From Escherichia phage KIT03: 64,000 bases of DNA. The notes beneath the pieces were generated by a model, which ran no database searches, was not told the DNA's origin, and saw only the letters and a program-made list of their open reading frames with translations. Below, piece by piece: positions 5,311 to 62,789 of the stretch. The stretch's first letter is position 1. Each line of letters begins with the position of its first letter. The stretch is taken from sequence record AP018932; one strand, 5' to 3'. The position numbers were made by a program, and so were the translations under genes.

Positions 5311-5991
5311 TTATTTTAATGTTACGAAAGAAGAATTACGTGTTTCACGAATTAGAACTGATCCGTCACGGTTAATGTAGTAAATTAAGCTAAACAGAGT
5401 TTGATGTGCCGACGCGTGTTCAAAACTAGTTGGGTGAGATTTCCAATCCGGAGTTTCAGCAATCCATTGGTAAATCCACCAAGGAACAGTACAGAATCCT
5501 GGATTTTTTCCAATCAACTGAAGATTCGGGCTAAAGTTTTCCGGAAGAGTAAATACAGACGGCTTTTCAGATTCAATAATCTCAGCTACAGCCTGTTCGA
5601 ATTTTTCTTCAACAAAAGGAGTATCTTCAATCAAAACATCGGTATTTTCAGGAATTTTATCCGTTTCTACTACTTCAATTTTAATATCAGATTTAACTGG
5701 AGAATCAATCAGAAGTGCTGCTTCTGGATTAACTTCTTCATCGTCATATTTTAATCCCTCTGCAGCATCAGCAGCATCAATTAAGTCTTTAATAGATAAC
5801 CCATCAGTCTCTGGCATAGGTTCACTAGCGAGCTTCTGGAGGGCTTCTTCAATATCAACAACGATATTATCAAAAGATTTATTCTTTTTGACCTTTATAC
5901 CAAACTGTTCAGCATATTCAGCTAATTTAGCTTTAGCTTCTTTATTATCATCAAGAGCCTTCAGCTCTGCAATATAATCTTTATCTATCAT
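5311..5991 (-). CDS. inh: inhibitor of prohead protease (Inh)
   Basis: 226-aa ORF adjacent to hoc. Confidence 0.85.
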   Translation of the reverse strand: MIDKDYIAELKALDDNKEAKAKLAEYAEQFGIKVKKNKSFDNIVVDIEEALQKLASEPMPETDGLSIKDLIDAADAAEGLKYDDEEVNPEAALLIDSPVKSDIKIEVVETDKIPENTDVLIEDTPFVEEKFEQAVAEIIESEKPSVFTLPENFSPNLQLIGKNPGFCTVPWWIYQWIAETPDWKSHPTSFEHASAHQTLFSLIYYINRDGSVLIRETRNSSFVTLK

Positions 5992-17115: not shown

Positions 17116-17146
17116 TTTGTGTTCCTCATGTTATGTCAGTAAAACT

Positions 17147-17176
17147 ACTATAACACAATACGAGGGACTTGTAAAC
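17147..17176 (-). promoter_or_regulatory. T4-type early promoter (-35 GTTTAC, 18 bp spacer, -10 TATAGT)
   Basis: gtaaac at 17171..17176 and actata at 17147..17152 on the + strand. Confidence 0.6.
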
Positions 17177-19233
17177 TACATTTTGAACTTTTTAGACATT
17201 CCGTTGATGTTAACCAAAGAAGCTAAGATTTGAGAAACTTCGTTTTCCTCTTCTTTTGATTCTTCTACAAGGAATTGATTAAATCCAGCCATTGGACGAA
17301 CTTCACCAGTTTCCATCAGATGGTCGCCATCATATACTGATTCTTCTAATTGTTCAGAAGGAGGAACGATTGTACCTTCGATTAGATACTTGTTATAAGC
17401 AGTTTCTTTCATCATGTACGTACTTACTTTATTAATCTTCAGTAAAATTCCACGCGGCAAAATAACTTCAGCTTCTGATGGAAATCCTGATAAATGACCC
17501 GGAACGATAACTTTGATTCGCTCAGCTCCTTTAATTACCATACCCACGCTAGTTTCAGCATCTTCATTAGCATATGTAGAATGACTACCCATATGCATCA
17601 AATCTTCTGCATCAACAGAACCTTCTCCTTCGCCAGAAAATACTGCACCGGAATCATCTAGAGCCATATAGTTTTTACCATGCTCACCGAAGATATTTGG
17701 TTTAAGTGATGTCGATACGAAGTTCTTGAAATAGAACATTTTATTTTCAATATTGTGACGCAAAGTTTTAAAGGTAACTTCTTGTCCACGGTAAAGTGTA
17801 GTTCCTGGAGGAAGAACTGAACCTTTAGCGAATGCAGAATCCAGCGTCTCAATATGTTTAATAGCTCGTTCCATATATTCTTCACGGGTAGAATCTGGTT
17901 TACCCAAAAGGAACGAGTTCATTTCAACATATGAATCTGCGCAATAATCTTCAATTACGTCAGATTCAGCCTGAGTTAATCCTTTTGGAGTTACTTCAGT
18001 ACTTGCATATTCATATGCCTGAGCGGCAGATTCATTAATCAATTTATAAATGCCATTCATGACAAATTGAATAATAGCTGTCTTTTCATCTGGCGTAGCT
18101 TTAGAACCTTTAACTAAATCATTGATAATTTTCTTAATAACATCAAAGCTATTAGAAATATTAATGTCAGCAAGATCGCTTAAAATTTTATCAGTTTTAT
18201 AATCAAAGAATTCTTTATTCTTTAAATATTCTTGAGAACCTTGATATGTTATATCGCTCTGCAACTTGATAGATGGATCACGTAAACGTGCATGGGCTAA
18301 TGCAATATGATTTCGGAAGTTTTCTAGTTCATAATCGCTAGATTTAAAACGAGAAGCGCTCCTCATACCACCGATAGCTCCTTTGTTGAAGTTTGAACCA
18401 ATCTGAATAACGCCAGAGTTCATTGGTCCTTCTGCTTTATATACCGGAACTTTAGATTCAAACTCTTGATATTTCTTAGCAGCGAAGCTATCACCCTGAA
18501 GTGAAGCATCAACAGTAGAATATTGAGCTTGTGCTGCTAATCGACGACTAATTTTAGTTTTCTGAATAACAGCTTGATCCGTGCGCTTATCATTTTCTAA
18601 GGCAATAGAAGCAGCAACAGCAACAGCTTTAGGAACAGCATTACCTGTTTTAACGTCTACATAAACATCACCAACCTTTGATTCAACTTTTGTGAATAAC
18701 TCAGTTGAAATAGGAGGTACACCTGGAATGTCTTCTAAATTGGCATTTTTACGGTAAACCATAATATATGCATATTTCTTATCATAGTCCCAGATTTCCT
18801 TTAAAAGAACATATCGGCCTGCTCCTTTAGTACGTACTAAACGGTCAGCAATAACTTGCATTTGACGAGCAGCGCCATTTGTTTTACTCTTTAGTACGCG
18901 GAATAAGCATGCATCAATTTTATACTGTTTCATTGTTTGAAGAGCAGTATCAAAAACAGCATTAATGACGCCAATTGGATTTCCACCCAAGTTTCTAAGC
19001 TTAACCAGCGATAATTTCTCGTTGACACCTATCATTACGATATGCATCATTTTATCGCCTGGCTTAACGTTTTTATTTGTATCACCACCAGAGGTGTATG
19101 TACAAAATCTAAATCCAGGAAGCACGCTTTCTTCACCGGCTTGGATAGCAAAAATTTGTGGTATTTTATGCTTAGGATTTAAGTTAACAACCGGCGCCGA
19201 AGCGCCGTCAAATAATTCTGTAATAAGTTCCAT
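17176..19233 (-). CDS. Alt-like ADP-ribosyltransferase paralog (intact, 685 aa)
   Basis: shares N-terminal MELITELFD...CTYTSGGDTN capsid-targeting region with Alt and a C-terminal ART domain carrying R (LYRG), STS (FVSTSL) and E (EAEVILPRG) motifs. Confidence 0.85.
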   Translation of the reverse strand: MELITELFDGASAPVVNLNPKHKIPQIFAIQAGEESVLPGFRFCTYTSGGDTNKNVKPGDKMMHIVMIGVNEKLSLVKLRNLGGNPIGVINAVFDTALQTMKQYKIDACLFRVLKSKTNGAARQMQVIADRLVRTKGAGRYVLLKEIWDYDKKYAYIMVYRKNANLEDIPGVPPISTELFTKVESKVGDVYVDVKTGNAVPKAVAVAASIALENDKRTDQAVIQKTKISRRLAAQAQYSTVDASLQGDSFAAKKYQEFESKVPVYKAEGPMNSGVIQIGSNFNKGAIGGMRSASRFKSSDYELENFRNHIALAHARLRDPSIKLQSDITYQGSQEYLKNKEFFDYKTDKILSDLADINISNSFDVIKKIINDLVKGSKATPDEKTAIIQFVMNGIYKLINESAAQAYEYASTEVTPKGLTQAESDVIEDYCADSYVEMNSFLLGKPDSTREEYMERAIKHIETLDSAFAKGSVLPPGTTLYRGQEVTFKTLRHNIENKMFYFKNFVSTSLKPNIFGEHGKNYMALDDSGAVFSGEGEGSVDAEDLMHMGSHSTYANEDAETSVGMVIKGAERIKVIVPGHLSGFPSEAEVILPRGILLKINKVSTYMMKETAYNKYLIEGTIVPPSEQLEESVYDGDHLMETGEVRPMAGFNQFLVEESKEEENEVSQILASLVNINGMSKKFKM

Positions 19234-19236
19234 GAT

Positions 19237-21330
19237 TTATCCTTGAACGAACTTGTAAGGCATGTTTGTAATATCTATGCAAGACGCAATAATTCCAAGA
19301 GATGATTCTACTTTCTGTTTAACATTTGATGAAACAAATGATGCAAAGTCAACTTTGTCTTCTATTTCAATATCACCTGTCATTGCAACCAATTCACCAG
19401 TTTCCATTAAATGGTCTCCATCATAGATTACCGATTCGGTGAGCTCTTCCGTGGTCATAACTTCAGCTTGAATGAGTTTTGTATTATTAGATGTTGTTCC
19501 GTCATTATTAGAAGCATCAGTTATTTTATTAACCTTGACCATCAATCCGCGTGGTAGAATAACTTCAGCTTCTGTTGCTATTCCGAGACTTCCTGGATAT
19601 ACAACATTAACTTTATGAGCTCCATCAATTGCCCATCCTATTTGAACTTTAACATATTCAGGATTTTCTTTATACGCTCTTATTTCGTTTGGATTAATAG
19701 TTATTCCTTCTTCATTTTTATCAACTGTTAATTCATTGCGAGCTTCTGGTTCTAAAAGACCAATACCAGCATGTGTGATTCCAAAACGTCCAAAAATGAT
19801 AGGAGTTAAAGAAGTAGATACAAAATTTCTGAAGTAGAACACTTTATTTTTAACTAACGCTTCATATATAGGAGCAGTCATACTTTGAGCACGATAAACT
19901 GTAATGCCTTCTGGTATACGGTCACCATTTTCAAAAGCTGAATCTAAGTTATTTATAGCAGATTCAATTTCTTTTTCACTCATTACATCGTATCGTTCTG
20001 GATTGTAACGACCTAAAAGAAGATTATTGATGTCAGTATATCCTGAACCGCAATATTCTCTAATGCCACGCTTTTGTGATGGAGTATATTTAGAACCATC
20101 GCGGGCAATAGTAATATCAATCATTGGACCAGCACCAATTCCAGAAAAACTGTAAATCATTCGTTTGAGGAATTTAGTTTTTGCTGCGTTCCAGGAATTT
20201 TTAGTTATTTCTTCCCAGACTTCATCTGGTTGTCCTTTACGATTTTTATTATGATTAGCAAGCCATTTATCTTTATAATCTTCAAAGAATTGATTTACAG
20301 CTGCTGCGTATTTCTCTAAACATTTTATTGAAGTAGTTGGTTCATTTTTAATTGCATTAAAAATTACTTCTTTAATTTTTTCTGAAACTTCACCGACTTG
20401 ACTCATTGGAAAGAATTTATAATCATAGTGAAGTTCATCTGCCGTTCCTTCAGCAATAATTTTTGCTGCCTTTGTTTTAGAAGCTAATGAATTAATTCCA
20501 ATTTTCATTTCTTCTGCTTCGGGAATTAAAGGTGCAGTAGCTGGTTTATTAAAATTGGCTGCTGTAGATTCATACTTCTGGAATAATTCACTTTCAAATC
20601 TAGAAGATTCCAATGACTGACTTTGTGCAATTGCTCTACGGGAAATTTTAACTTTAACGATTACAGCTTGATCAGAACGTTTATCGTTTTCTTGCGCAAT
20701 AGATGCTGCAATTGCCTCATTTTTAGTTACTTGAGCTCCGGTATCTTTATTGATATAAACATCGCCGACCTTCGATTCAACTTTAGTAAAGAGCTCTGTA
20801 CTAATTTCCGGAACTCCTGGAATGTCTTCTAGTGATACATTTTTGCGATGTATAAGAATATATGCGTACTTTTTATCATAATCCCAGAGTTCCTTAAGAA
20901 GGACGTATCTGCCACCTGAACGACTACGGATAAGTCTATCAGCAATAAGTTGAATTTGACGAGCTTGACCAGCAGTTTTAGACTTAAGAATACGGAGCAT
21001 GCAGGCATCAATTTTATACTGACGCATCGTCTGCATCGCAACAGTAAAAACTGAATTGATGTAATTAATTGGGCTTGGACCGAGACCTTTTAATTTAGCA
21101 ATTGAACCTTTAGCAGTTAATGTAAAAGGAACAATATGCATCATTTTATCGCCCATCTTTAAATCGCGATTAGTATCACCTCCAGATGTATAGGTACATA
21201 AACGAAAGCCTGGTTGTTCAATTGCGTCATCAACATGAACTGAAAAAATTTGCGGTATTTTCTTCTTTGGATTTAAGTTTGTAATCGGAAGAGTAGTATC
21301 TTCGTCAAATAATTCTGTAATGAGTTCCAT
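19237..21330 (-). CDS. alt: internal head ADP-ribosyltransferase Alt
   Basis: 697/698-aa ORF recognised as T4 Alt; R-STS-E catalytic motifs present. Confidence 0.92.
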   Translation of the reverse strand: MELITELFDEDTTLPITNLNPKKKIPQIFSVHVDDAIEQPGFRLCTYTSGGDTNRDLKMGDKMMHIVPFTLTAKGSIAKLKGLGPSPINYINSVFTVAMQTMRQYKIDACMLRILKSKTAGQARQIQLIADRLIRSRSGGRYVLLKELWDYDKKYAYILIHRKNVSLEDIPGVPEISTELFTKVESKVGDVYINKDTGAQVTKNEAIAASIAQENDKRSDQAVIVKVKISRRAIAQSQSLESSRFESELFQKYESTAANFNKPATAPLIPEAEEMKIGINSLASKTKAAKIIAEGTADELHYDYKFFPMSQVGEVSEKIKEVIFNAIKNEPTTSIKCLEKYAAAVNQFFEDYKDKWLANHNKNRKGQPDEVWEEITKNSWNAAKTKFLKRMIYSFSGIGAGPMIDITIARDGSKYTPSQKRGIREYCGSGYTDINNLLLGRYNPERYDVMSEKEIESAINNLDSAFENGDRIPEGITVYRAQSMTAPIYEALVKNKVFYFRNFVSTSLTPIIFGRFGITHAGIGLLEPEARNELTVDKNEEGITINPNEIRAYKENPEYVKVQIGWAIDGAHKVNVVYPGSLGIATEAEVILPRGLMVKVNKITDASNNDGTTSNNTKLIQAEVMTTEELTESVIYDGDHLMETGELVAMTGDIEIEDKVDFASFVSSNVKQKVESSLGIIASCIDITNMPYKFVQG

Positions 21331-21361
21331 CATATCCTCTCTAGTGTTTATTCTATTTATA

Positions 21362-21382: not shown

Positions 21383-21571
21383 TTAATAATCTATTGGTAA
21401 GAGAGTACGATATATTTCAAACTTTGGACCTTTTTCATAAGCATCAAAAGTTTCTGTGAATTTATTATAAGCATATGCATCTATAAATTCAATCATGATT
21501 TGTGATACAGAAGTAGAAACATCTCCACCTTCTTTTTGAGCCACGACAATTGTTTCTAAGTAAGCTTTCAT
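21383..21571 (-). CDS. hypothetical small protein
   Basis: 62-aa ORF, start overlaps DNA ligase stop. Confidence 0.6.
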   Translation of the reverse strand: MKAYLETIVVAQKEGGDVSTSVSQIMIEFIDAYAYNKFTETFDAYEKGPKFEIYRTLLPIDY

Positions 21572-23031
21572 AAACCAGTTACCTCATGAAAATCACCAAA
21601 TACATCCTCGAATGTATTAGCTTTAGTTTTATCTTCACGCAAACGAATCGCAATTGGAAGAAATAATTTAACGTAATCAGTGCGGCCATCGGATTTTAAC
21701 CAACCGTTGCATTCGCACTCTAGAATTTTTCCAATATAATAATTTTGGTTTTCCATAATGCGAGTACGGTCAAGTTCATGTGATTTTACTCCGGCTTTAT
21801 CTTTTAAGCCTGAACCGGCATTTACCTTAATTTTTCCACACTCTGACTCAAGAATAAATCCACCTGCTTTAGTAGGGTCTTTACGGTGAGGATAAATTCC
21901 TACAATTTTTAAATCAACATCAATTACTTCTTTAAATTTATAGAGATTTTTTGAACGAGCATTTTCCCATAATCCATCGATATTTTTGAGAATAATACCT
22001 TCAAGACCTTGGTCAATATACTTTTTATAAATTACCTTAGCTTCATCTAGGTTATTTACTACTTGGTTTTCAATTAAAATTACTTTATCATATCCTGATG
22101 TCATTTGTTCTAATTTAGAAAAACGTACATCATATTTTAAACGAAATGCTGGAAGACCGTATATTTCTACCAACGGAACATAATCCCAGACCTGAAACTT
22201 CATGCATTGAGCTTCTTTTTCTGAAATAGTTCCCTTTAAAGATTTATTAGCGATTCCATTAGAAGTAGTACGTGATTCAGCTACTTCAGCAAACTCTTTA
22301 GCTTTACTAATTTCAGGATAAGCATCAAAAAGAAAATCTAGGCCTTCTGGCTCCTTTTTAACTTGCTCATGGTATACCAATTCGCCATCAATTAACACAC
22401 CTTCTGGATGAATCTGGCGGGCTTCAGCGGTCATTTTGATTAACTCTTCCTTAAGAAGATCTAATCCTAGATATTCATTACCAGCTCGTGATAAAAGACG
22501 GACATCATCTAATTCATCACCTCTAACTTCAGCAAAACACCGAGCTCCATCTGCTTTTAATTGTGCAAAGGCTGGAAATTTGATATTCTTACTAATGCCT
22601 TTTTCATCATAAGAACTTGCGAGCATTTGAGGTTGTTCAGGAATTAAACTTGGCCAAACTTTGTTTGCAATAGATACTGAAGCACCACATTCAAGGTCTC
22701 GCATCATCACTCGACGCAAAACTTCAACATCATCTTTTTTACCATCGGTGATATATCCAGATAATTCCTCAATTGCCGCATTTCCGGTCAATTTCCGAGT
22801 AGCTAACGTGAATTCAATGAAGTCAAGCATATCGGTAAGAGTCAACATTCCAAAACTCTGGGTAGCAATACCAGATTTAGGCCATTTCTTGATATAATAC
22901 TGCAACCCACGAGAATAAGTCAGACGATATACTCGTTTAAGCAATTCATTATCTTTATTCTTTTCAAGAATTGCTTGCTTCTGCTTAGTTGAACCAATAG
23001 ATGCTATTTCGTTCAGAATTTTAAGAATCAT
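21568..23031 (-). CDS. 30: ATP-dependent DNA ligase gp30
   Basis: 487-aa ORF recognised as T4 DNA ligase; adenylation lysine motif (KADGAR) present. Confidence 0.97.
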   Translation of the reverse strand: MILKILNEIASIGSTKQKQAILEKNKDNELLKRVYRLTYSRGLQYYIKKWPKSGIATQSFGMLTLTDMLDFIEFTLATRKLTGNAAIEELSGYITDGKKDDVEVLRRVMMRDLECGASVSIANKVWPSLIPEQPQMLASSYDEKGISKNIKFPAFAQLKADGARCFAEVRGDELDDVRLLSRAGNEYLGLDLLKEELIKMTAEARQIHPEGVLIDGELVYHEQVKKEPEGLDFLFDAYPEISKAKEFAEVAESRTTSNGIANKSLKGTISEKEAQCMKFQVWDYVPLVEIYGLPAFRLKYDVRFSKLEQMTSGYDKVILIENQVVNNLDEAKVIYKKYIDQGLEGIILKNIDGLWENARSKNLYKFKEVIDVDLKIVGIYPHRKDPTKAGGFILESECGKIKVNAGSGLKDKAGVKSHELDRTRIMENQNYYIGKILECECNGWLKSDGRTDYVKLFLPIAIRLREDKTKANTFEDVFGDFHEVTGL

Positions 23032-25690: not shown

Positions 25691-25745
25691 GATGTTTAAT
25701 TGCGGTACAGGTATATAATATCATATCCTGTACCAAAGTAAACAA

Positions 25746-27005: not shown

Positions 27006-27341
27006 TCACTTATAAAGACACGGAATAGCTTTATAGTGACAAGTAACGAATTTTTGTTTAATTTCTTTTGGCTGCTTAAGACCCAGAGCTACAAAAGGAT
27101 GCGGAACATTTCGAATTTGACCAACTGGAAGAGAAGTCAAATCACCAACTTCGCAGAAACCTTCAGGAACATCAGGACCAACAGAGTGAACTACACACAG
27201 TTCAGGAACTTCACCTTGAGCACGTTTACCGATAATAAGTCCTGATTCTGTAACTTCTTCATCACCGGCTTGTGCAGGTTCAGAAACTAAAATAACATAT
27301 TCACCGACAGCACGAATTGGTAGCTGTTGTACTTCAGACAT
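27006..27341 (-). CDS. 31: co-chaperonin gp31 (GroES analogue)
   Basis: 111-aa ORF recognised as gp31. Confidence 0.93.
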
Positions 27342-32400: not shown

Positions 32401-32431
32401 CATAAAGTCCTCATGTTATGTCAGTAAGATT

Positions 32432-32461
32432 ACTGTAACACAACACGAGGGACTTGTAAAC
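32432..32461 (-). promoter_or_regulatory. T4-type early promoter (GTTTAC, 18 bp spacer, TACAGT) for alc
   Basis: near-identical copy of the element at 17147..17176. Confidence 0.6.
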
Positions 32462-40242: not shown

Positions 40243-40575
40243 TTAAAAAGGATCAGGAACATACCCACTAGCTTTAATCATTTTAACTAATGTTACCATT
40301 CCTTTGTTAACTGCTTGTGAGATTTCATCAAAAACTTCATCATTAAAAAGTTCTAGCACACCCTTCTGAACTTTTAATTTACAGCCAACAATTTCGTCAT
40401 CGCCTATAGTAAATTCATTACCGCCAATTCCACCGAAAAACTTAATTACCCCAGTTAACTGTCTTCCACGAGAATATGGGTCATGTGATAAAGTAATATG
40501 AGTCACCCCAGGTACAGTTTTAAATTGACAGCGAATGTTTACTTGAGAAATTCCAGTTACATGAATGTCAGACAT
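40243..40575 (-). CDS. hypothetical protein
   Basis: 110-aa ORF. Confidence 0.6.
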   Translation of the reverse strand: MSDIHVTGISQVNIRCQFKTVPGVTHITLSHDPYSRGRQLTGVIKFFGGIGGNEFTIGDDEIVGCKLKVQKGVLELFNDEVFDEISQAVNKGMVTLVKMIKASGYVPDPF

Positions 40576-40585
40576 AATATTTTCC

Positions 40586-40828
40586 TCAAACAGACTTTTT
40601 CACAATTTTCCAATCAGCTTTAAACTGTTCAACGTCAGAATGGTAAATCCAGAATCCTGCGCTTTCTCCATCCTCATAAAGAGGGCATCCATCACATTCA
40701 TCTTCCCACCCCATGTCACGTAAAAGATGTTCAGCTTTTTCAACAAGTTCAGAATCTTTACCGATGATATTAAAATACCATTTACCTTTAACTTCTGAAT
40801 CTTTGATGCTCTGACGTTGTAATCTCAT
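40586..40828 (-). CDS. hypothetical protein
   Basis: 80-aa ORF downstream of an early promoter (40854..40883). Confidence 0.6.
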   Translation of the reverse strand: MRLQRQSIKDSEVKGKWYFNIIGKDSELVEKAEHLLRDMGWEDECDGCPLYEDGESAGFWIYHSDVEQFKADWKIVKKSV

Positions 40829-40882
40829 TTTATTCTCCTTAGTTGATAGGGTAATAGTATCACACTACTACCCTTCTGTAAA

Positions 40883-41245
40883 CTACTTTTTGAAAGTTTT
40901 TCGCAAAAGTTCAATGATTTCATCTACATTGTTTTCGTCTACAATGCAGTGAATTTTTGTTACGCCAGAAACCTTGTCTTCTATTTCATCTTCAGAAGTC
41001 GGTTCTTTATACTCACGAAAACAATGAAATTCATCTTCGCAGACGTTGAAGTAAAAATGCTTTCCATTGGCGCATTCTACGTGTTTTACTACTTTAAATC
41101 CATCAGCAAAGAAAACTTCTTTAACTTCAAACCATCCGCCATTTTCTTGAATAGCTTTAACTATTAATGAATTAGAACGCGGGCGATAATTAATAAATGT
41201 ATCAATAAGTCTTGGAACAAGTTCGTACTTTTTATCAATATACAT
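40883..41245 (-). CDS. hypothetical protein
   Basis: 120-aa ORF. Confidence 0.6.
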   Translation of the reverse strand: MYIDKKYELVPRLIDTFINYRPRSNSLIVKAIQENGGWFEVKEVFFADGFKVVKHVECANGKHFYFNVCEDEFHCFREYKEPTSEDEIEDKVSGVTKIHCIVDENNVDEIIELLRKTFKK

Positions 41246-41289
41246 TATGTTTTCCTCATTTTAATAGGGGCTTGATATCCCCTCGATAA

Positions 41290-41541
41290 TTACTGTTCAA
41301 TCAATCCCATGTAAAATTCTGCATCTTCAGCATCCATACCATCACAGTATTCATTAGCCATAAATCGTTCAAGAACTTCTAAAGGACCTTCAATAACAAT
41401 AGAAAAATTGCAATAATTGGGATCATCATGAATACTTGTGATACTAAGTTCAGGATAACGATTACGAATAATTTCTTCAATATATTCAAAATCAACGATG
41501 TCAATATCAACTTTAGCCATATTGTTTTCCTCTTTAATCAT
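41290..41541 (-). CDS. hypothetical protein
   Basis: 83-aa ORF downstream of an early promoter. Confidence 0.6.
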
Positions 41542-41563
41542 CAGCAGTATTGCCGATAGTTGT

Positions 41564-41593
41564 ATAGTACCATAAAGCTTTATGCTTGTAAAC
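41564..41593 (-). promoter_or_regulatory. T4-type early promoter (GTTTAC, 18 bp spacer, TACTAT) with A/T-rich upstream element
   Basis: gtaaac at 41588..41593 and atagta at 41564..41569; module repeated at 58271..58300 and 61924..61953. Confidence 0.6.
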
Positions 41594-41604
41594 CGTTTTG
41601 TGAA

Positions 41605-41644
41605 AAAATTTTTGAAATAAAAAAGGGGACCTCTAGGGTCCCCA
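41605..41644 (-). terminator. hairpin terminator downstream of gene 32
   Basis: GGGGACC-CUAG-GGUCCCC then UUUUUUAUUU on the - strand. Confidence 0.65.
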
Positions 41645-41665
41645 ATTAATTAGTAATATAATCTA

Positions 41666-42574
41666 TTAAAGGTCATTCAAAAGGTCATCCAGGTCCGTGT
41701 CATCAGCACTAGATGAACTGCCAGAGCTTGAGCTCATAAAATCATCTTCAGTTTTTGTATTGAAGTCATCAACATTGAATGCATCCAAATCATCAGCAAC
41801 TTTATCAGCTTTCTTAGCAGCAGTTGCTGCGGCACCACCCATAGCAGCAGTTCCCATAACTTGACTGAACTTAGTGCTCAGTTCTTCAAACGATTTGAAT
41901 TTATCTTTAGAAGTCATTTCAGAAAGGTCAACCATTTGTTCGAACAGTTCTTTCTGGAAAGATTCATCATCAATGTTTGGAATCGCAGATTGATTCAGGA
42001 ATTTAGATTCGTCGTAGTTACTAAAACCAGAAACTTGTTTAACTTTCAGTACAAAATTAGCACCTTCCCACGGACAAGTTACATCAACCGGAGTTTCACC
42101 CATTTCAACATCAACTGCAATCATTGCGTTGATTTTATCCCAGATTTTCTTACCGAAACGGTATTTAAATACTTTACCTTCATTTTCTGGAGCAGCTGGG
42201 TCTTTTACTACAAGAATGTTAGCCCAGTAAGAAGTTTTACGTTTAACAAGACTGTACTCTTTATTATCAGTGTTGTACAAATCATTTTTACTGATGTACT
42301 GACATACTGGACAAGAATCATAATCACCGTGGGTAGATGAGCAATTTTCGATATACCATTTACCGTTTTTCTTGAAACCGTGATTTACAAGAATTGCGAA
42401 TGGTGCTTGTTCATCATTTTTAGACGGAAGAAAACGAATTACTGCTTGACCGTTACCCGCATTGTCGAGTTTCAGTTTCCACTCGCCTTTATCTTCAGAA
42501 GAAAAACCACCTTTATTTCCAGCCAGTTTAGCCATTTGTGCAGCGAGTTCAGCAGTAGATTTACGTTTAAACAT
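41666..42574 (-). CDS. 32: single-stranded DNA-binding protein gp32
   Basis: 302-codon ORF recognised as gp32 including the acidic C-terminal tail. Confidence 0.97.
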
Positions 42575-42640
42575 TTTTATTTCCTTTTTAATTTAATTAA
42601 CAGTTGGTGCTATGACGATGTATGACCTCATAGCTGGTCA
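42575..42640 (-). promoter_or_regulatory. gene 32 translational operator (mRNA pseudoknot plus unstructured A/U-rich leader)
   Basis: leader reads UGAGGUCAUACAUCGUCAUAGCACCAACUG followed by UUAAUUAAAUUAAAAAGGAAAUAAAAAUG, matching the known autoregulatory site. Confidence 0.75.
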
Positions 42641-42673
42641 GTGAGATAATTATAATCTATTTATAATAAGCAA

Positions 42674-43327
42674 TTAATACTTACAAGATTTCACAGTTTC
42701 AATAAAAACTTTTTTAGCTTCCTGTGAATCAATATTTAAAATTTTTCTATAAGCCTTTAACTTTATAGAATAATTATTCCAGACTAAATTATCAGTCTGT
42801 TCATCATGTTTATCGATTATATTTAAAAACGAATCAAGCAAGATAAACGTCTCAAACGAAATTATATTCGATTGAAGTAGTTTAAAAATATAACTTGATT
42901 GAACTTTTGGATTATATTCAAAAATTTCTTTAAAAGCAGAAACTTCAACTTTTTTACTAAAATAATAAATGTTGCGAATATCTTCTTCAAACTTAAATTT
43001 AATTTGCTTTAAGCGTCCGATATATTCACGATAAAACACAAGTGCATCAGCGTCAGAGATGTCACCAATCCAAGCATCTTGGTTAGCAACCAAATTACTT
43101 ATAAAGATTAAAGCAAGTTCCTTTAATTTATATTTTTCTGATAACTTCTGAAAAAAATACTTATCCCTTCGCTTTTGATAAGCGGCATCAGACACCCGCA
43201 TGCACCAATTATACTTAATAACATCATACTTTCCATTCATATGCTGTTTTATCATTAAGTATAATTTATAAACTGATTTACCATCAATGTATCTTTCACC
43301 ACCAGCAGGCATGCGGAGTTTAATCAT
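42674..43327 (-). CDS. 59: helicase loader gp59
   Basis: 217-aa ORF. Confidence 0.93.
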   Translation of the reverse strand: MIKLRMPAGGERYIDGKSVYKLYLMIKQHMNGKYDVIKYNWCMRVSDAAYQKRRDKYFFQKLSEKYKLKELALIFISNLVANQDAWIGDISDADALVFYREYIGRLKQIKFKFEEDIRNIYYFSKKVEVSAFKEIFEYNPKVQSSYIFKLLQSNIISFETFILLDSFLNIIDKHDEQTDNLVWNNYSIKLKAYRKILNIDSQEAKKVFIETVKSCKY

Positions 43328-53600: not shown

Positions 53601-53987
53601 GTTCAGGCGAATGACAGCTATTCAACGTATGTCCGCGATGTTTATGTCCGCTCTGATATTCGTGTTAAAAAGGATCTAGTTAAATTTGAAAATGCTTCTG
53701 AGAAGCTTTCAAAAATTAATGGTTACACTTATATGCAGAAGCGAGGCCTAGATGAAGAAGGTAATCAGAAATGGGAACCAAACGCTGGGTTAATTGCTCA
53801 AGAAGTTCAAGTTATTTTACCTGAATTGGTTGAAGGCGATCAGGATAGTGAAGCTTTACTTCGTTTGAACTATAACGGTGTAATTGGTTTAAATACAGCT
53901 GCAATCAATGAGCATACTGCAGAAATTGCAGAACTTAAGTCAGAGATTGAAGAGCTTAAAAAATTAGTTAAATCATTGTTAAAATAA
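50661..53987 (+). CDS. 37: long tail fibre distal subunit gp37 with C-terminal intramolecular chaperone (self-cleaving) domain
   Basis: 1108-aa ORF; C-terminus carries an SDIRVKKD...coiled-coil region typical of endosialidase-type chaperone domains. Confidence 0.93.
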
Positions 53988-57593: not shown

Positions 57594-58229
57594 TCACAGT
57601 TCAGATGCTACAGTGATTACTGCTTCAATGTTTTCTGCCGAACGTTTAATGTCAAGATACACATTACCGTTTTTAGCGATTTTACAAGACATTCCGATAT
57701 CGGTAAATTTCTGAATATGATGTTCCATCATTTTGTATCCAAAAATTCGCATGTTTCCATTATTGTTAATTTCAAAATTGCGAATTCCGTGAGTGCGTTT
57801 TTCTAAAATAGCAAGATAGTTACTGCGGTAAGTTTCAACCTTTTTAAGAACAAATCCATTTTCATCTAAAAGTTTTAACATGAGGTCTTTATCTTCTTCC
57901 ATATCGGAAGTAATCTCACGAGCTTTACGAGTTGCTCGTTTTTTCAGTAGTTCCGGAGCATTTTCCTGCGCGTATAAAGTTGCTGCATTTGAAATAATAT
58001 CTTGAGCTTCACCAGTAATGATTAATCCATCACCAGATTTCTCTACCAGGCCTTTTTTAATCAATACACCAATATTACTATTAACTACTGCATTACCTAA
58101 ATCTGGATGCACCTCACGAACTTCTGCAGCTGTAATGAAATCTTTCTTAGCAATAGTAATTAAAATCGCAGCAGTTTTTTCATTCAAAACATCGTTAGAA
58201 GCTTTGATGATGTAAGTTACTTTAGACAT
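57594..58229 (-). CDS. motA: middle transcription activator MotA
   Basis: 211-aa ORF recognised as MotA. Confidence 0.95.
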   Translation of the reverse strand: MSKVTYIIKASNDVLNEKTAAILITIAKKDFITAAEVREVHPDLGNAVVNSNIGVLIKKGLVEKSGDGLIITGEAQDIISNAATLYAQENAPELLKKRATRKAREITSDMEEDKDLMLKLLDENGFVLKKVETYRSNYLAILEKRTHGIRNFEINNNGNMRIFGYKMMEHHIQKFTDIGMSCKIAKNGNVYLDIKRSAENIEAVITVASEL

Positions 58230-58270
58230 TTTCTAATCTCCGTAATTCTGTATCAGTAGTTGATAGTTGT

Positions 58271-58300
58271 ATAGTACCACAGTATGCTTTGGTTGTAAAC
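58271..58300 (-). promoter_or_regulatory. T4-type early promoter for motA (GTTTAC, 18 bp spacer, TACTAT)
   Basis: gtaaac at 58295..58300 and atagta at 58271..58276. Confidence 0.6.
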
Positions 58301-58315
58301 CGTTTTGTGAAAAAA

Positions 58316-58354
58316 TTTTTGAAATAAAAAAAGGGGAGAGCCGAGGCTCTCCCC
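58316..58354 (-). terminator. hairpin terminator upstream of motA promoter
   Basis: GGGGAGAGCC...GGCTCTCCCC stem followed by U-rich tract on the - strand. Confidence 0.6.
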
Positions 58355-61631: not shown

Positions 61632-61895
61632 TCATAGCTCAATCTCAGCGATTTTCATTTCATTACTATTAATAGCCGCTTTAAGACTATCTGAAAGAAT
61701 TACATTCCAATGGTCATTCATATGACCACTAACTAAGCGTGTAATTTCTTCAGGAGTTGAAAAATAAGGCTGATCAGACTCCCAATGCGATAGTCCCAAG
61801 CGAGTATAAATCATACCTTCATCATCGCTAGAATATTCAACTGACACAAACTCATCAGTTATTTTATGTTTAGCGTAATAAAATTTAAATTTCAT
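61632..61895 (-). CDS. hypothetical protein (87 aa)
   Basis: start MKFKFYYAKHK with GGAGGAG RBS; the tracked ORF 5' extension spans the promoter element. Confidence 0.6.
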   Translation of the reverse strand: MKFKFYYAKHKITDEFVSVEYSSDDEGMIYTRLGLSHWESDQPYFSTPEEITRLVSGHMNDHWNVILSDSLKAAINSNEMKIAEIEL

Positions 61896-61923
61896 TTTCC
61901 GCTCCTCCGTAGTTGATAGTTGT

Positions 61924-61953
61924 ATAGTACCACGATCCTTGTGGTATGTAAAC
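61924..61953 (-). promoter_or_regulatory. T4-type early promoter (GTTTAC, 18 bp spacer, TACTAT)
   Basis: third copy of the gatagttgtatagtacca...gtaaaccgttttgtgaaaa module. Confidence 0.55.
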
Positions 61954-61969
61954 CGTTTTGTGAAAATTT

Positions 61970-62527
61970 TTAAATGGAAAGATACCATCCGTTGTAGTTG
62001 CTTTTTCTTACAACCTTACGAAGGTCTTCTCTATCACCGATGAACTTCGGAGTGTACTGGATGACACCTGGATGAATTTCTTTAGTGTTGAATATAATTA
62101 TACAGTCCGCGACTTGATGATTTAGAATGGGCCCTAGATTTATTCCAGAACCATATGGATACTCTCCGCTGCATCCCGTTGTTACCGAAATCCAACGCGA
62201 GTCAGTTTGATGTGTCTTAACTTCTACACGGAGCCCACAGTATTTTGGATGTGCTAAAACATCCCATGCATACGTGTACGGATCATCGACATCTTCTTGG
62301 CCTTTATTGACATATCCGCTTAGCCAATCTGCCACCACATACTCGGCATACACTGCGATACGGCATCTTTCGATAACTTCTGCCTTATCCTGATTTGGGT
62401 TTTGTTTTAAAGAGTATCTCGCAGTATCAGCAATTTTGACCTTCATTTCACTGGTCAAGTCACCGTTCGATAGGGTAAATGTCGGAATCTGAAATAGTCT
62501 CTGTAGCCCCGGATTCGTTTTCTGCAT
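61970..62527 (-). CDS. denB: endonuclease IV (DenB)
   Basis: 185-aa ORF, size and position match DenB. Confidence 0.8.
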   Translation of the reverse strand: MQKTNPGLQRLFQIPTFTLSNGDLTSEMKVKIADTARYSLKQNPNQDKAEVIERCRIAVYAEYVVADWLSGYVNKGQEDVDDPYTYAWDVLAHPKYCGLRVEVKTHQTDSRWISVTTGCSGEYPYGSGINLGPILNHQVADCIIIFNTKEIHPGVIQYTPKFIGDREDLRKVVRKSNYNGWYLSI

Positions 62528-62789
62528 TTAGACTTTCCTTTTTACCACTAAGATAAGCGTTATACACTTTAAGAGTACCATAGTAAATTCGATCATTTTC
62601 ATCTAAAGAATTATGATCAAGTTCATCGAGATTATTTTTGTCCATGACTATAACATCATTACAGTAAAGAACTCCAAGTTTTTCGTGACCAAACTCTAAT
62701 TTATTACAATACACAATGTTAGCGTGATGATTTCCGTGCAGTTTAATCTCTTTTATGTCGGAATCGCCGATATTCATACAATAAATCAT
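62460..62789 (-). CDS. hypothetical protein
   Basis: 109-aa ORF, 3' end overlaps denB start. Confidence 0.55.
   Translation of the reverse strand: MIYCMNIGDSDIKEIKLHGNHHANIVYCNKLEFGHEKLGVLYCNDVIVMDKNNLDELDHNSLDENDRIYYGTLKVYNAYLSGKKESLNAENESGATETISDSDIYPIER

Follow-up and report, generated by a model that had tools for sequence, protein, structure and literature searches.

Introduction

T4-type phages contain cassettes, known as PeSL (promoter-early stem-loop), that work both as regulatory units and as sites of gene shuffling (Arbiol 2010, PMC2839356; Comeau 2014, PMC4122927). A PeSL is an intergenic unit of ~100 bp in which an upstream stop codon, a stem-loop terminator, an A/T-rich region, early -35 and -10 elements, an SD and an ATG follow one another; it is repeated round the genome and adjoins insertions, deletions and replacements of ORFs between close relatives. 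The copies described below resemble it in both respects. One example, taken from Comeau 2014 (PMC4122927), is a PeSL-mediated exchange in the ndd region, of T4 ndd.4/.5 for PST ORF268/269. The internal-protein loci of T-even phages have also been assigned shuffling elements (Repoila et al. 1994, cited by PMC2839356 and PMC4122927). The early promoters of T4 have been called 'uber' promoters, composed of UP, -35, TGn and -10 elements with extra consensus regions (Hinton 2010, PMC2988021).

In this work we analysed a 64-kb stretch of the DNA of phage KIT03 (AP018932), hereafter the window, in which three early promoters are alike far beyond their hexamers.

Results

Genome setting and promoter anatomy

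The window belongs to a Tequatrovirus, and its 56-64 kb region is 94-96% identical to T4. Its gene order is that of T4 ~105-169 kb, and the - strand carries the prereplicative genes. A megablast search with positions 40500-43000 matched 795 phage records, all T4-like, the closest of which was Escherichia phage 310Ecol104PP (98.5% identity).

A first-pass annotation had reported three copies of a promoter-terminator module, near gene 32, motA and denB. We found all three at those positions and on the same (-) strand, and the gene context was correct. Copy 1 lies between the stop codon of gene 32 (41666-41668) and the start codon of frd.3 (41518-41520), copy 2 between the stop codon of motA.1 and the start codon of motA (58227-58229), and copy 3 begins at the denB stop (61970-61972), with an 87-aa ORF (61632-61895) downstream. 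The features are as follows.

41625-41643, - strand: terminator after gene 32, with the hairpin GGGGACC-CTAGA-GGTCCCC (-14.3 kcal/mol) and a T-run behind it
41586-41624, - strand: copy 1 U block (39 nt, the same as in copy 2), comprising T-run, A/T-rich UP element and, at 41588-41593, the -35 GTTTAC
41573-41585, - strand: copy 1 variable spacer core, T4-type allele
41555-41572, - strand: copy 1 D block TGGTACTATACAACTATC, with TGG, -10 TACTAT at 41564-41569, start region and first transcribed bases
41518-41554, - strand: locus-specific frd.3 leader, SD and ATG (41518-41520); the translation is frd.3
58333-58354, - strand: terminator after motA.1, with the hairpin GGGGAGAGC-CTCG-GCTCTCCCC (-23.2 kcal/mol, z -5.5) and a T-run behind it
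58293-58331, - strand: copy 2 U block, with UP element and -35 GTTTAC at 58295-58300
58256-58280, - strand: copy 2 D block, with TGG, -10 TACTAT at 58271-58276 and ACAACTATCAACTAC; 25 nt identical to copy 3
58227-58255, - strand: motA leader, with GGAG SD (putative RegB-type site) and ATG at 58227-58229
61947-61975, - strand: shortened U block of copy 3 with 20 exact nt and the -35 GTTTAC (61948-61953)
61909-61933, - strand: copy 3 D block, -10 TACTAT at 61924-61929
61632-61908, - strand: copy 3 leader and 87-aa ORF (ATG 61893-61895), homologue of PST ORF268, absent from T4

Read 5' to 3' on the - strand, each copy runs through A- and T-tracts, GTTTACA, a spacer, TGG, TACTAT, ACAACTATC, a leader, an SD and an ATG. 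The UP region of copy 3 overlaps the end of denB, whose stop codon (61970-61972) lies inside it. A sigma-70 scan detected all three copies, with TG ahead of the -10 in each, and all of them read GTTTACA-N17-TACTAT, with 18 nt between GTTTAC and TACTAT. Hexamers and spacing are therefore those of T4 early promoters (17-18 nt from GTTTAC to the -10, or 17 when counted from TTTACA), and the extended -10 TGn and the A/T-rich UP element typical of this class are present in all three as well. These scans support the promoter reading of the first-pass annotation (UP element, GTTTAC, 18-nt gap and TACTAT on the - strand). When the window was searched for the pattern GTTTAC-N17/18-TAnnnT, 12 promoters were obtained, all 12 on the early-transcribed - strand. 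Over the 30 nt upstream of GTTTAC, copies 1 and 2 are 100% identical, as compared to about 15-57% among the other promoters of the window.

The site orthologous to copy 3 is annotated as a promoter, with -35 and -10 signals, in the T4D record X75802.1, and an early promoter of motA has reportedly been described (Uzan 1990). The leaders of the copies carry GGAG SD sequences of the RegB type, which are putative RegB sites (the consensus being GGAGRAYARAA; PMC3014915). No Rfam family scored above threshold anywhere in the window.

The spacer core of copy 1 is part of a perfect 14-nt palindrome, CATAAAGCTTTATG (41571-41584), at a position where most relatives have tccttgtccttcca. A MotA box might also be read in this spacer (aaaGCTTTA); we rejected this reading, since the motif ends 3 nt before the -10 and MotA boxes are centred at -30 (PMC2988021). 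Dyad symmetry is frequent in early-promoter spacers, copy 3 having TACCAC...GTGGTA (61930-61947), and inverted repeats bracket the -10 box of other promoters of the window, such as those at 25743, 29154 and 40883 (region 25700-25740).

The window also contains a second pair of near-identical early promoters, at 17123-17176 and 32408-32461, which are 15.3 kb apart and 93% identical over 54 nt. The identity covers GTTTAC, spacer, -10 and leader. The promoter version differs from that of the three-copy family, and the pair behaves like this family; one of its members lies behind the alt-like genes, the other ahead of a 168-aa ORF. The region around 17-21 kb holds two tandem ORFs, 17176-19233 (685 aa) and 19237-21333 (698 aa), that share about 71-75% DNA identity with a repeat spacing of 2094-2097 and sit just downstream of a 487-aa ORF (21568-23031), probably the DNA ligase gene 30. 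In this region T4 presumably has a single alt gene, and the ORF pair looks like a tandem alt duplication.

Two blocks shared by the three copies

The D block, TGGTACTATACAACTATC on the - strand, is exact over 18 nt in all three copies (41555-41572, 58262-58279 and 61915-61932), and its exact match between copies 2 and 3 reaches 25 nt. The U block, whose 3' end on the - strand is GTTTACA, is exact over 39 nt between copies 1 and 2 (41586-41624 and 58293-58331), and 20 nt of it are exact in copy 3 (61947-61966). Ranked by length, the top four exact direct repeats in the window (39, 25, 20 and 20 nt) all come from these blocks; in shuffled windows (n=20) the longest exact repeat was 15-18 nt. A 19-mer and a 17-mer core each occur exactly three times with zero mismatches. 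With up to 3 mismatches they give 4 and 3 matches, counts that none of 100 shuffles attained, and a repeat search of the window groups the three copies as one family. The 13 nt that separate the two blocks are no more similar than those of unrelated early promoters.

The first-pass annotation had named a likeness confined to the promoter hexamers as the outcome that would speak against it. Since the similarity runs well beyond the hexamers, this test of its own fails. Its two 94-nt spans need correction, being out of register by 3 nt; the true offset is 16707. When the three copies were aligned together with their flanks, the similarity stopped at functional borders, that is, at the T-run on one side and in the leader on the other, and neither terminal inverted repeats nor target-site duplications were found. 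The lack of both speaks against a transposable or MITE-like repeat, which was considered as a candidate.

Terminator hairpins

Copies 1 and 2 stand directly behind an intrinsic terminator, that is, a stable GC-rich hairpin followed at once by a T-run. The stem after gene 32 has 7 pairs, 6 of which are GC, and that after motA.1 has 9 pairs, 7 of which are GC. Both stems and loops differ between the two sites and only the T-run, which doubles as the distal part of the UP region of the next promoter, is common to them. For this reason the hairpins are not homologous and do not belong to the repeat, in which they had initially been included. As for copy 3, neither a GC hairpin nor a T-run was detected by scanning and folding its upstream stretch, which contains a weak A/T-rich stem inside the coding end of denB (-9.2 kcal/mol and z -1.8 for the whole 56-nt stretch). 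The view that each copy has a hairpin terminator thus holds for copies 1 and 2 and fails for copy 3.

Among close relatives, the centres of the hairpins vary as reverse complements (CTAGA or TCTAG after gene 32, TC or GA after motA.1). These variants look like small inversions of the loop within the stem, and the two sites vary independently.

Members of the family in T4 and in other phages

T4 contains the same three copies at the same three sites. Scanning T4 positions 1-100000 revealed three further full members; the G of their GTTTAC is at 27080 (before imm.1), 55384 (before nrdC.10) and 70696 (before e.8). A partial member is located at 53943. The nrdC.10 copy also stands behind a GC hairpin and a T-run. 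The number of three copies is therefore an artefact of the window, T4 having at least six full members. Copies 1 and 2 are kept in all five other Tequatroviruses compared (PST, T2, KMB22, HP3.2 and ECML-134), and copy 3 is found, with at most 2 mismatches, in PST, T2, KMB22 and HP3.2, but not in ECML-134.

In the window and in T4, the U blocks of the three loci are 86-100% identical to each other. The corresponding values are 49-69% in the two outgroup genomes, JS98 (Dhakavirus) and one Mosigvirus, which have other promoter versions at these loci; JS98 has a repeated version of its own, ctttaaacatgaTACTATagacctatcaa, at three sites. Among the three genera compared, near-identity of the copies is, on these alignments, limited to Tequatrovirus, which is a small addition to what was known. 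Aeromonas phage 44RR2.8t has three instances of the 19-nt UP/-35 core TTTCACAAAACRGTTTACA, all of them behind a GC hairpin and one in its 52-motA region; the core is also found in Mosigvirus promoters. The three copies of 44RR2.8t form a family in which the GC hairpin, tttgttgtttttattgaaatctt and TTTCACAAAACAGTTTACA are nearly identical in all three, whereas the -10 and the downstream sequence differ.

Spacer alleles and their probable exchange between loci

At the 32/frd.3 locus, two spacer alleles occur inside DNA that is otherwise 95-98% identical. The window and T4 carry the allele agcataaagctttat. In T4 and KMB39 an identical spacer belongs to the nrdC.11/nrdC.10 copy, and in KMB22 and REP1 this allele has matches at other loci. 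PST, T2, HP3.2 and ECML-134 carry the allele tccttgtccttccat, one base apart from the spacer of the T4 e.8 copy. When the phage collection was searched with a PST/T2-type query, about 400 records matched with at least 90% identity and 78 fell in the 80-90% band, T4 (85.3%) being within the latter. Leaders show a similar distribution: T4 has aactgatacggatttggagaataaaatg behind its nrdC.10 copy, whereas PST and T2 have it behind copy 3. In ECML-134 the same G-to-T change adjoins the -35 in both copy 1 and copy 2, and the T4 copies at 27080 and 70696 carry this T.

The apparent swapping of spacers between loci is a small addition beyond the known class of cassettes; exchange of spacers between loci is not mentioned in the available portions of the PeSL papers (PMC2839356, PMC4122927). 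Two other markers were considered and discarded. A C/T polymorphism of the UP element (atttCaaaa or atttTaaaa) is uninformative on concerted change, since copies 1 and 2 agree in only 4 of 7 genomes, and the presence of segG did not correlate with the gene 32 spacer allele in 7 genomes.

Gene cassettes at the copies and deletions between them

HP3.2 has an insertion between copy 2 and motA that consists of a 75-aa ORF, a stem-loop and another promoter, which is JS98-like. The junction of the insert falls immediately after ACAACTATCAA of copy 2, and the repeated leader ctatcaaataaatgaactgaaac flanks it; two other records give the same match in two pieces as HP3.2, about 1.34 kb long. The promoter that directly precedes motA in HP3.2 is the Dhakavirus (JS98) version and not the Tequatrovirus one (extracted loci, HP3.2 19140-19560 and JS98 19228-19620), so the cassette probably came from a phage of another genus.

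The first gene behind copy 3 is ndd.6 in T4, ORF269-like in PST and T2, and ORF268-like in the window, KMB22 and HP3.2, and the junctions of these swaps lie in the leader or at the ATG. Copies 2 and 3 are therefore located at borders of indels or replacements, as PeSL cassettes are, and at copy 1 only a spacer replacement is seen. In T4 and T2, ORF268 was lost by way of two ATGAAA microhomologies and not through the promoter; the body of the ORF268-like gene seems to have been removed from both phages by an in-frame deletion between these microhomologies. T4 has an 8-codon mini-ORF, MKIAEIEL, that overlaps the start of ndd.6 (extracted T4 locus 5497-5526) and corresponds to the 3' end of the 87-aa ORF268-like gene of the window (61632-61664). 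Between denB and denB.1, ~195 nt of the window (62542-62736) have no counterpart in T4, PST and T2. This stretch is within a 109-aa ORF (62460-62789), and ECML-134 and JS98 annotate an ORF of similar size there.

The copies are all direct repeats of one another. The tail-fibre genes 34-38, t, asiA and motA would be lost in a deletion from copy 1 to copy 2, and gene 52 in one from copy 2 to copy 3. Repeats of this kind had been proposed to serve for recombination and deletion between distant loci, with endpoints to be looked for in related genomes. We searched phage records with chimeric queries: a denB-motA junction through a hybrid promoter (denB|motA query) was contiguous in 0 of 673 records, and a motA.1-frd.3 junction (motA.1|frd.3 query) in 0 of 502. 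No deletion endpoint was thus found in these 502-673 records; the events observed are local exchanges at the copies, in the form of spacer swaps between loci and of insertion or replacement of ORF cassettes at the shared leader. The absence of deletions is expected from established T4 genetics, considering that the genes lying between the copies (tail-fibre genes 34-38, asiA, motA and 52) are required in T4.

Discussion

Origin and maintenance of the copies

The reading that we favour, with a probability of about 0.85, is that the three copies belong to a subfamily of immediate-early sigma-70 promoters found throughout Tequatrovirus, spread by descent and kept by selection together with occasional exchange. 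Each promoter, combining an A/T-rich UP element, the -35 GTTTACA, an extended -10 (TGG) and the -10 TACTAT, would be read by unmodified host RNA polymerase right after infection, as its sequence and the established biology of T4 suggest. At 32/frd.3 and motA.1/motA, upstream transcription would stop and a new early transcript would start within about 70 bp. Behind denB, where there is no terminator, the promoter would add to read-through transcription. The near-identity of the copies may derive from common descent, one promoter version having spread to several loci. It may persist because selection acts on promoter function and because the copies now and then undergo ectopic recombination or gene conversion. 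In such events the two invariant blocks would give the homology, while the intervening spacer and the ORFs downstream of the shared leader would be exchanged, as in the published behaviour of PeSL cassettes. The exact blocks are short for recombination (39 and 18 nt); homologous recombination in T4 reportedly drops sharply below about 50 bp (Singer et al. 1982).

The copies might instead be alike through independent selection on RNA polymerase contacts alone, never recombining together. The conservation of the TTTCACAAAACRGTTTACA core in genera as distant as those of 44RR2.8t and the Mosigvirus is in line with this, and it means that part of the U-block identity is deep functional conservation for which no recombination is needed; many other T4 early promoters, moreover, share gtgG/A-TAcTAT...ctatcaact at the consensus level. 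Selection of this sort does not account for the 15-nt spacers, which are at background level between most copies and yet identical or one base apart between certain loci, and which swap at one locus. Nor does it account for an identity that extends through the T-run and to +12..+18, or for the two outgroup genera, which lack near-identity at the same three loci. We therefore consider it unlikely. A distinct idea is that the extra conserved bases, which comprise the UP region plus the part of the D block that reaches from the -10 to about +12 (or to +18 in copies 2 and 3), are an operator for a phage factor that controls a subset of promoters, for instance in early shut-off. The blocks are indeed more conserved than the general early-promoter consensus, and PMC2988021 treats the way in which early shut-off works as unresolved; but RNA polymerase itself contacts promoter DNA from -60 to +20, we know of no candidate phage factor, and no theme unites the genes served (frd.3, motA, ORF268/ndd.6, imm.1, nrdC.10 and e.8). 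An operator, which would in any case be compatible with the explanation by descent, selection and exchange, appears very unlikely.

The position of the junctions bears on whether the exchange is site-specific. A mobile element or attachment site, at whose invariant blocks a recombinase or homing endonuclease moves ORF cassettes in integron style, would explain why cassette insertions and replacements start within a few bases of the same leader position, and the PeSL authors leave 'homologous or site-specific recombination' open. Against it, the junction positions do vary (leader, SD or ATG), terminal inverted repeats and target-site duplications are lacking, no recombinase gene adjoins any copy, and segG, which lies beside gene 32, does not track the spacer allele; such an element is, in our opinion, highly improbable. 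A broader form of the idea is that the invariant blocks are dedicated exchange sites, through which a set of at least six early promoters, specific to Tequatrovirus, evolve in concert, trade 15-nt spacers between loci and capture small ORF cassettes at a fixed leader position, maybe with the aid of a phage enzyme. We regard this as quite unlikely; if true, it would amount to an integron-like gene-capture system built into promoters.

Under the preferred explanation of descent, selection and occasional exchange, the longest repeats found in this portion of a T4-like genome are regulatory cassettes, and not mobile elements or assembly artefacts. They offer a clear example of a cassette whose promoter cores are fixed while the spacer and the small genes downstream are exchanged from one locus to another and from one phage to another. 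The annotation gains three early transcription units along with two terminators; for phage engineering, short homologies are flagged that could cause unwanted exchange. The finding of repeated promoter-terminator units opens no long-standing question and is real but ordinary, since such cassettes have already been described in T4-type phages.

Comparison with known systems

The three copies do not differ in kind from the T4 P_E promoters, with which they share the UP element, the -35 GTTTAC, TGn, a -10 of the form TAnnnT, the start-site consensus and the early strand (PMC2988021). They represent a tight subfamily, 86-100% identical in the UP/-35 block as compared to about 40-55% among the other early promoters of the window. 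The structures after gene 32 and motA.1 resemble intrinsic terminators in having a GC-rich hairpin directly followed by a T-run; they differ in that this T-run is also the far end of the UP element of the next promoter, and copy 3 has no such structure. The T-even internal-protein shuffling elements, as presented in the papers that cite them, are likewise T4-type early promoters and stem-loops that flank exchangeable small genes, although at another locus.

The closest likeness is to PeSL. The composite definition, by which a single intergenic space holds a stem-loop, an early promoter, an SD and an ATG and the unit recurs in the genome, describes copies 1 and 2; copy 3 differs by the absence of a stem-loop. 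Unlike the published PeSL, copies 1 and 2 adjoin conserved genes (32 and motA) and not only ORFans. The experimental hallmark of PeSL is the formation of mini-circles by recombination between copies; for the copies of the window, the matching deletions occurred in none of the 502-673 records searched. The PST/T4 PeSL consensus TTTACW-N17-TAYWAT (PMC4122927) fits the copies, and the ndd-denB exchange at copy 3 concerns the same small region as the example in Fig. 6A of the PeSL papers. Judged on this comparison, the three copies are T4 early promoters that match the published PeSL cassettes, a class already known.
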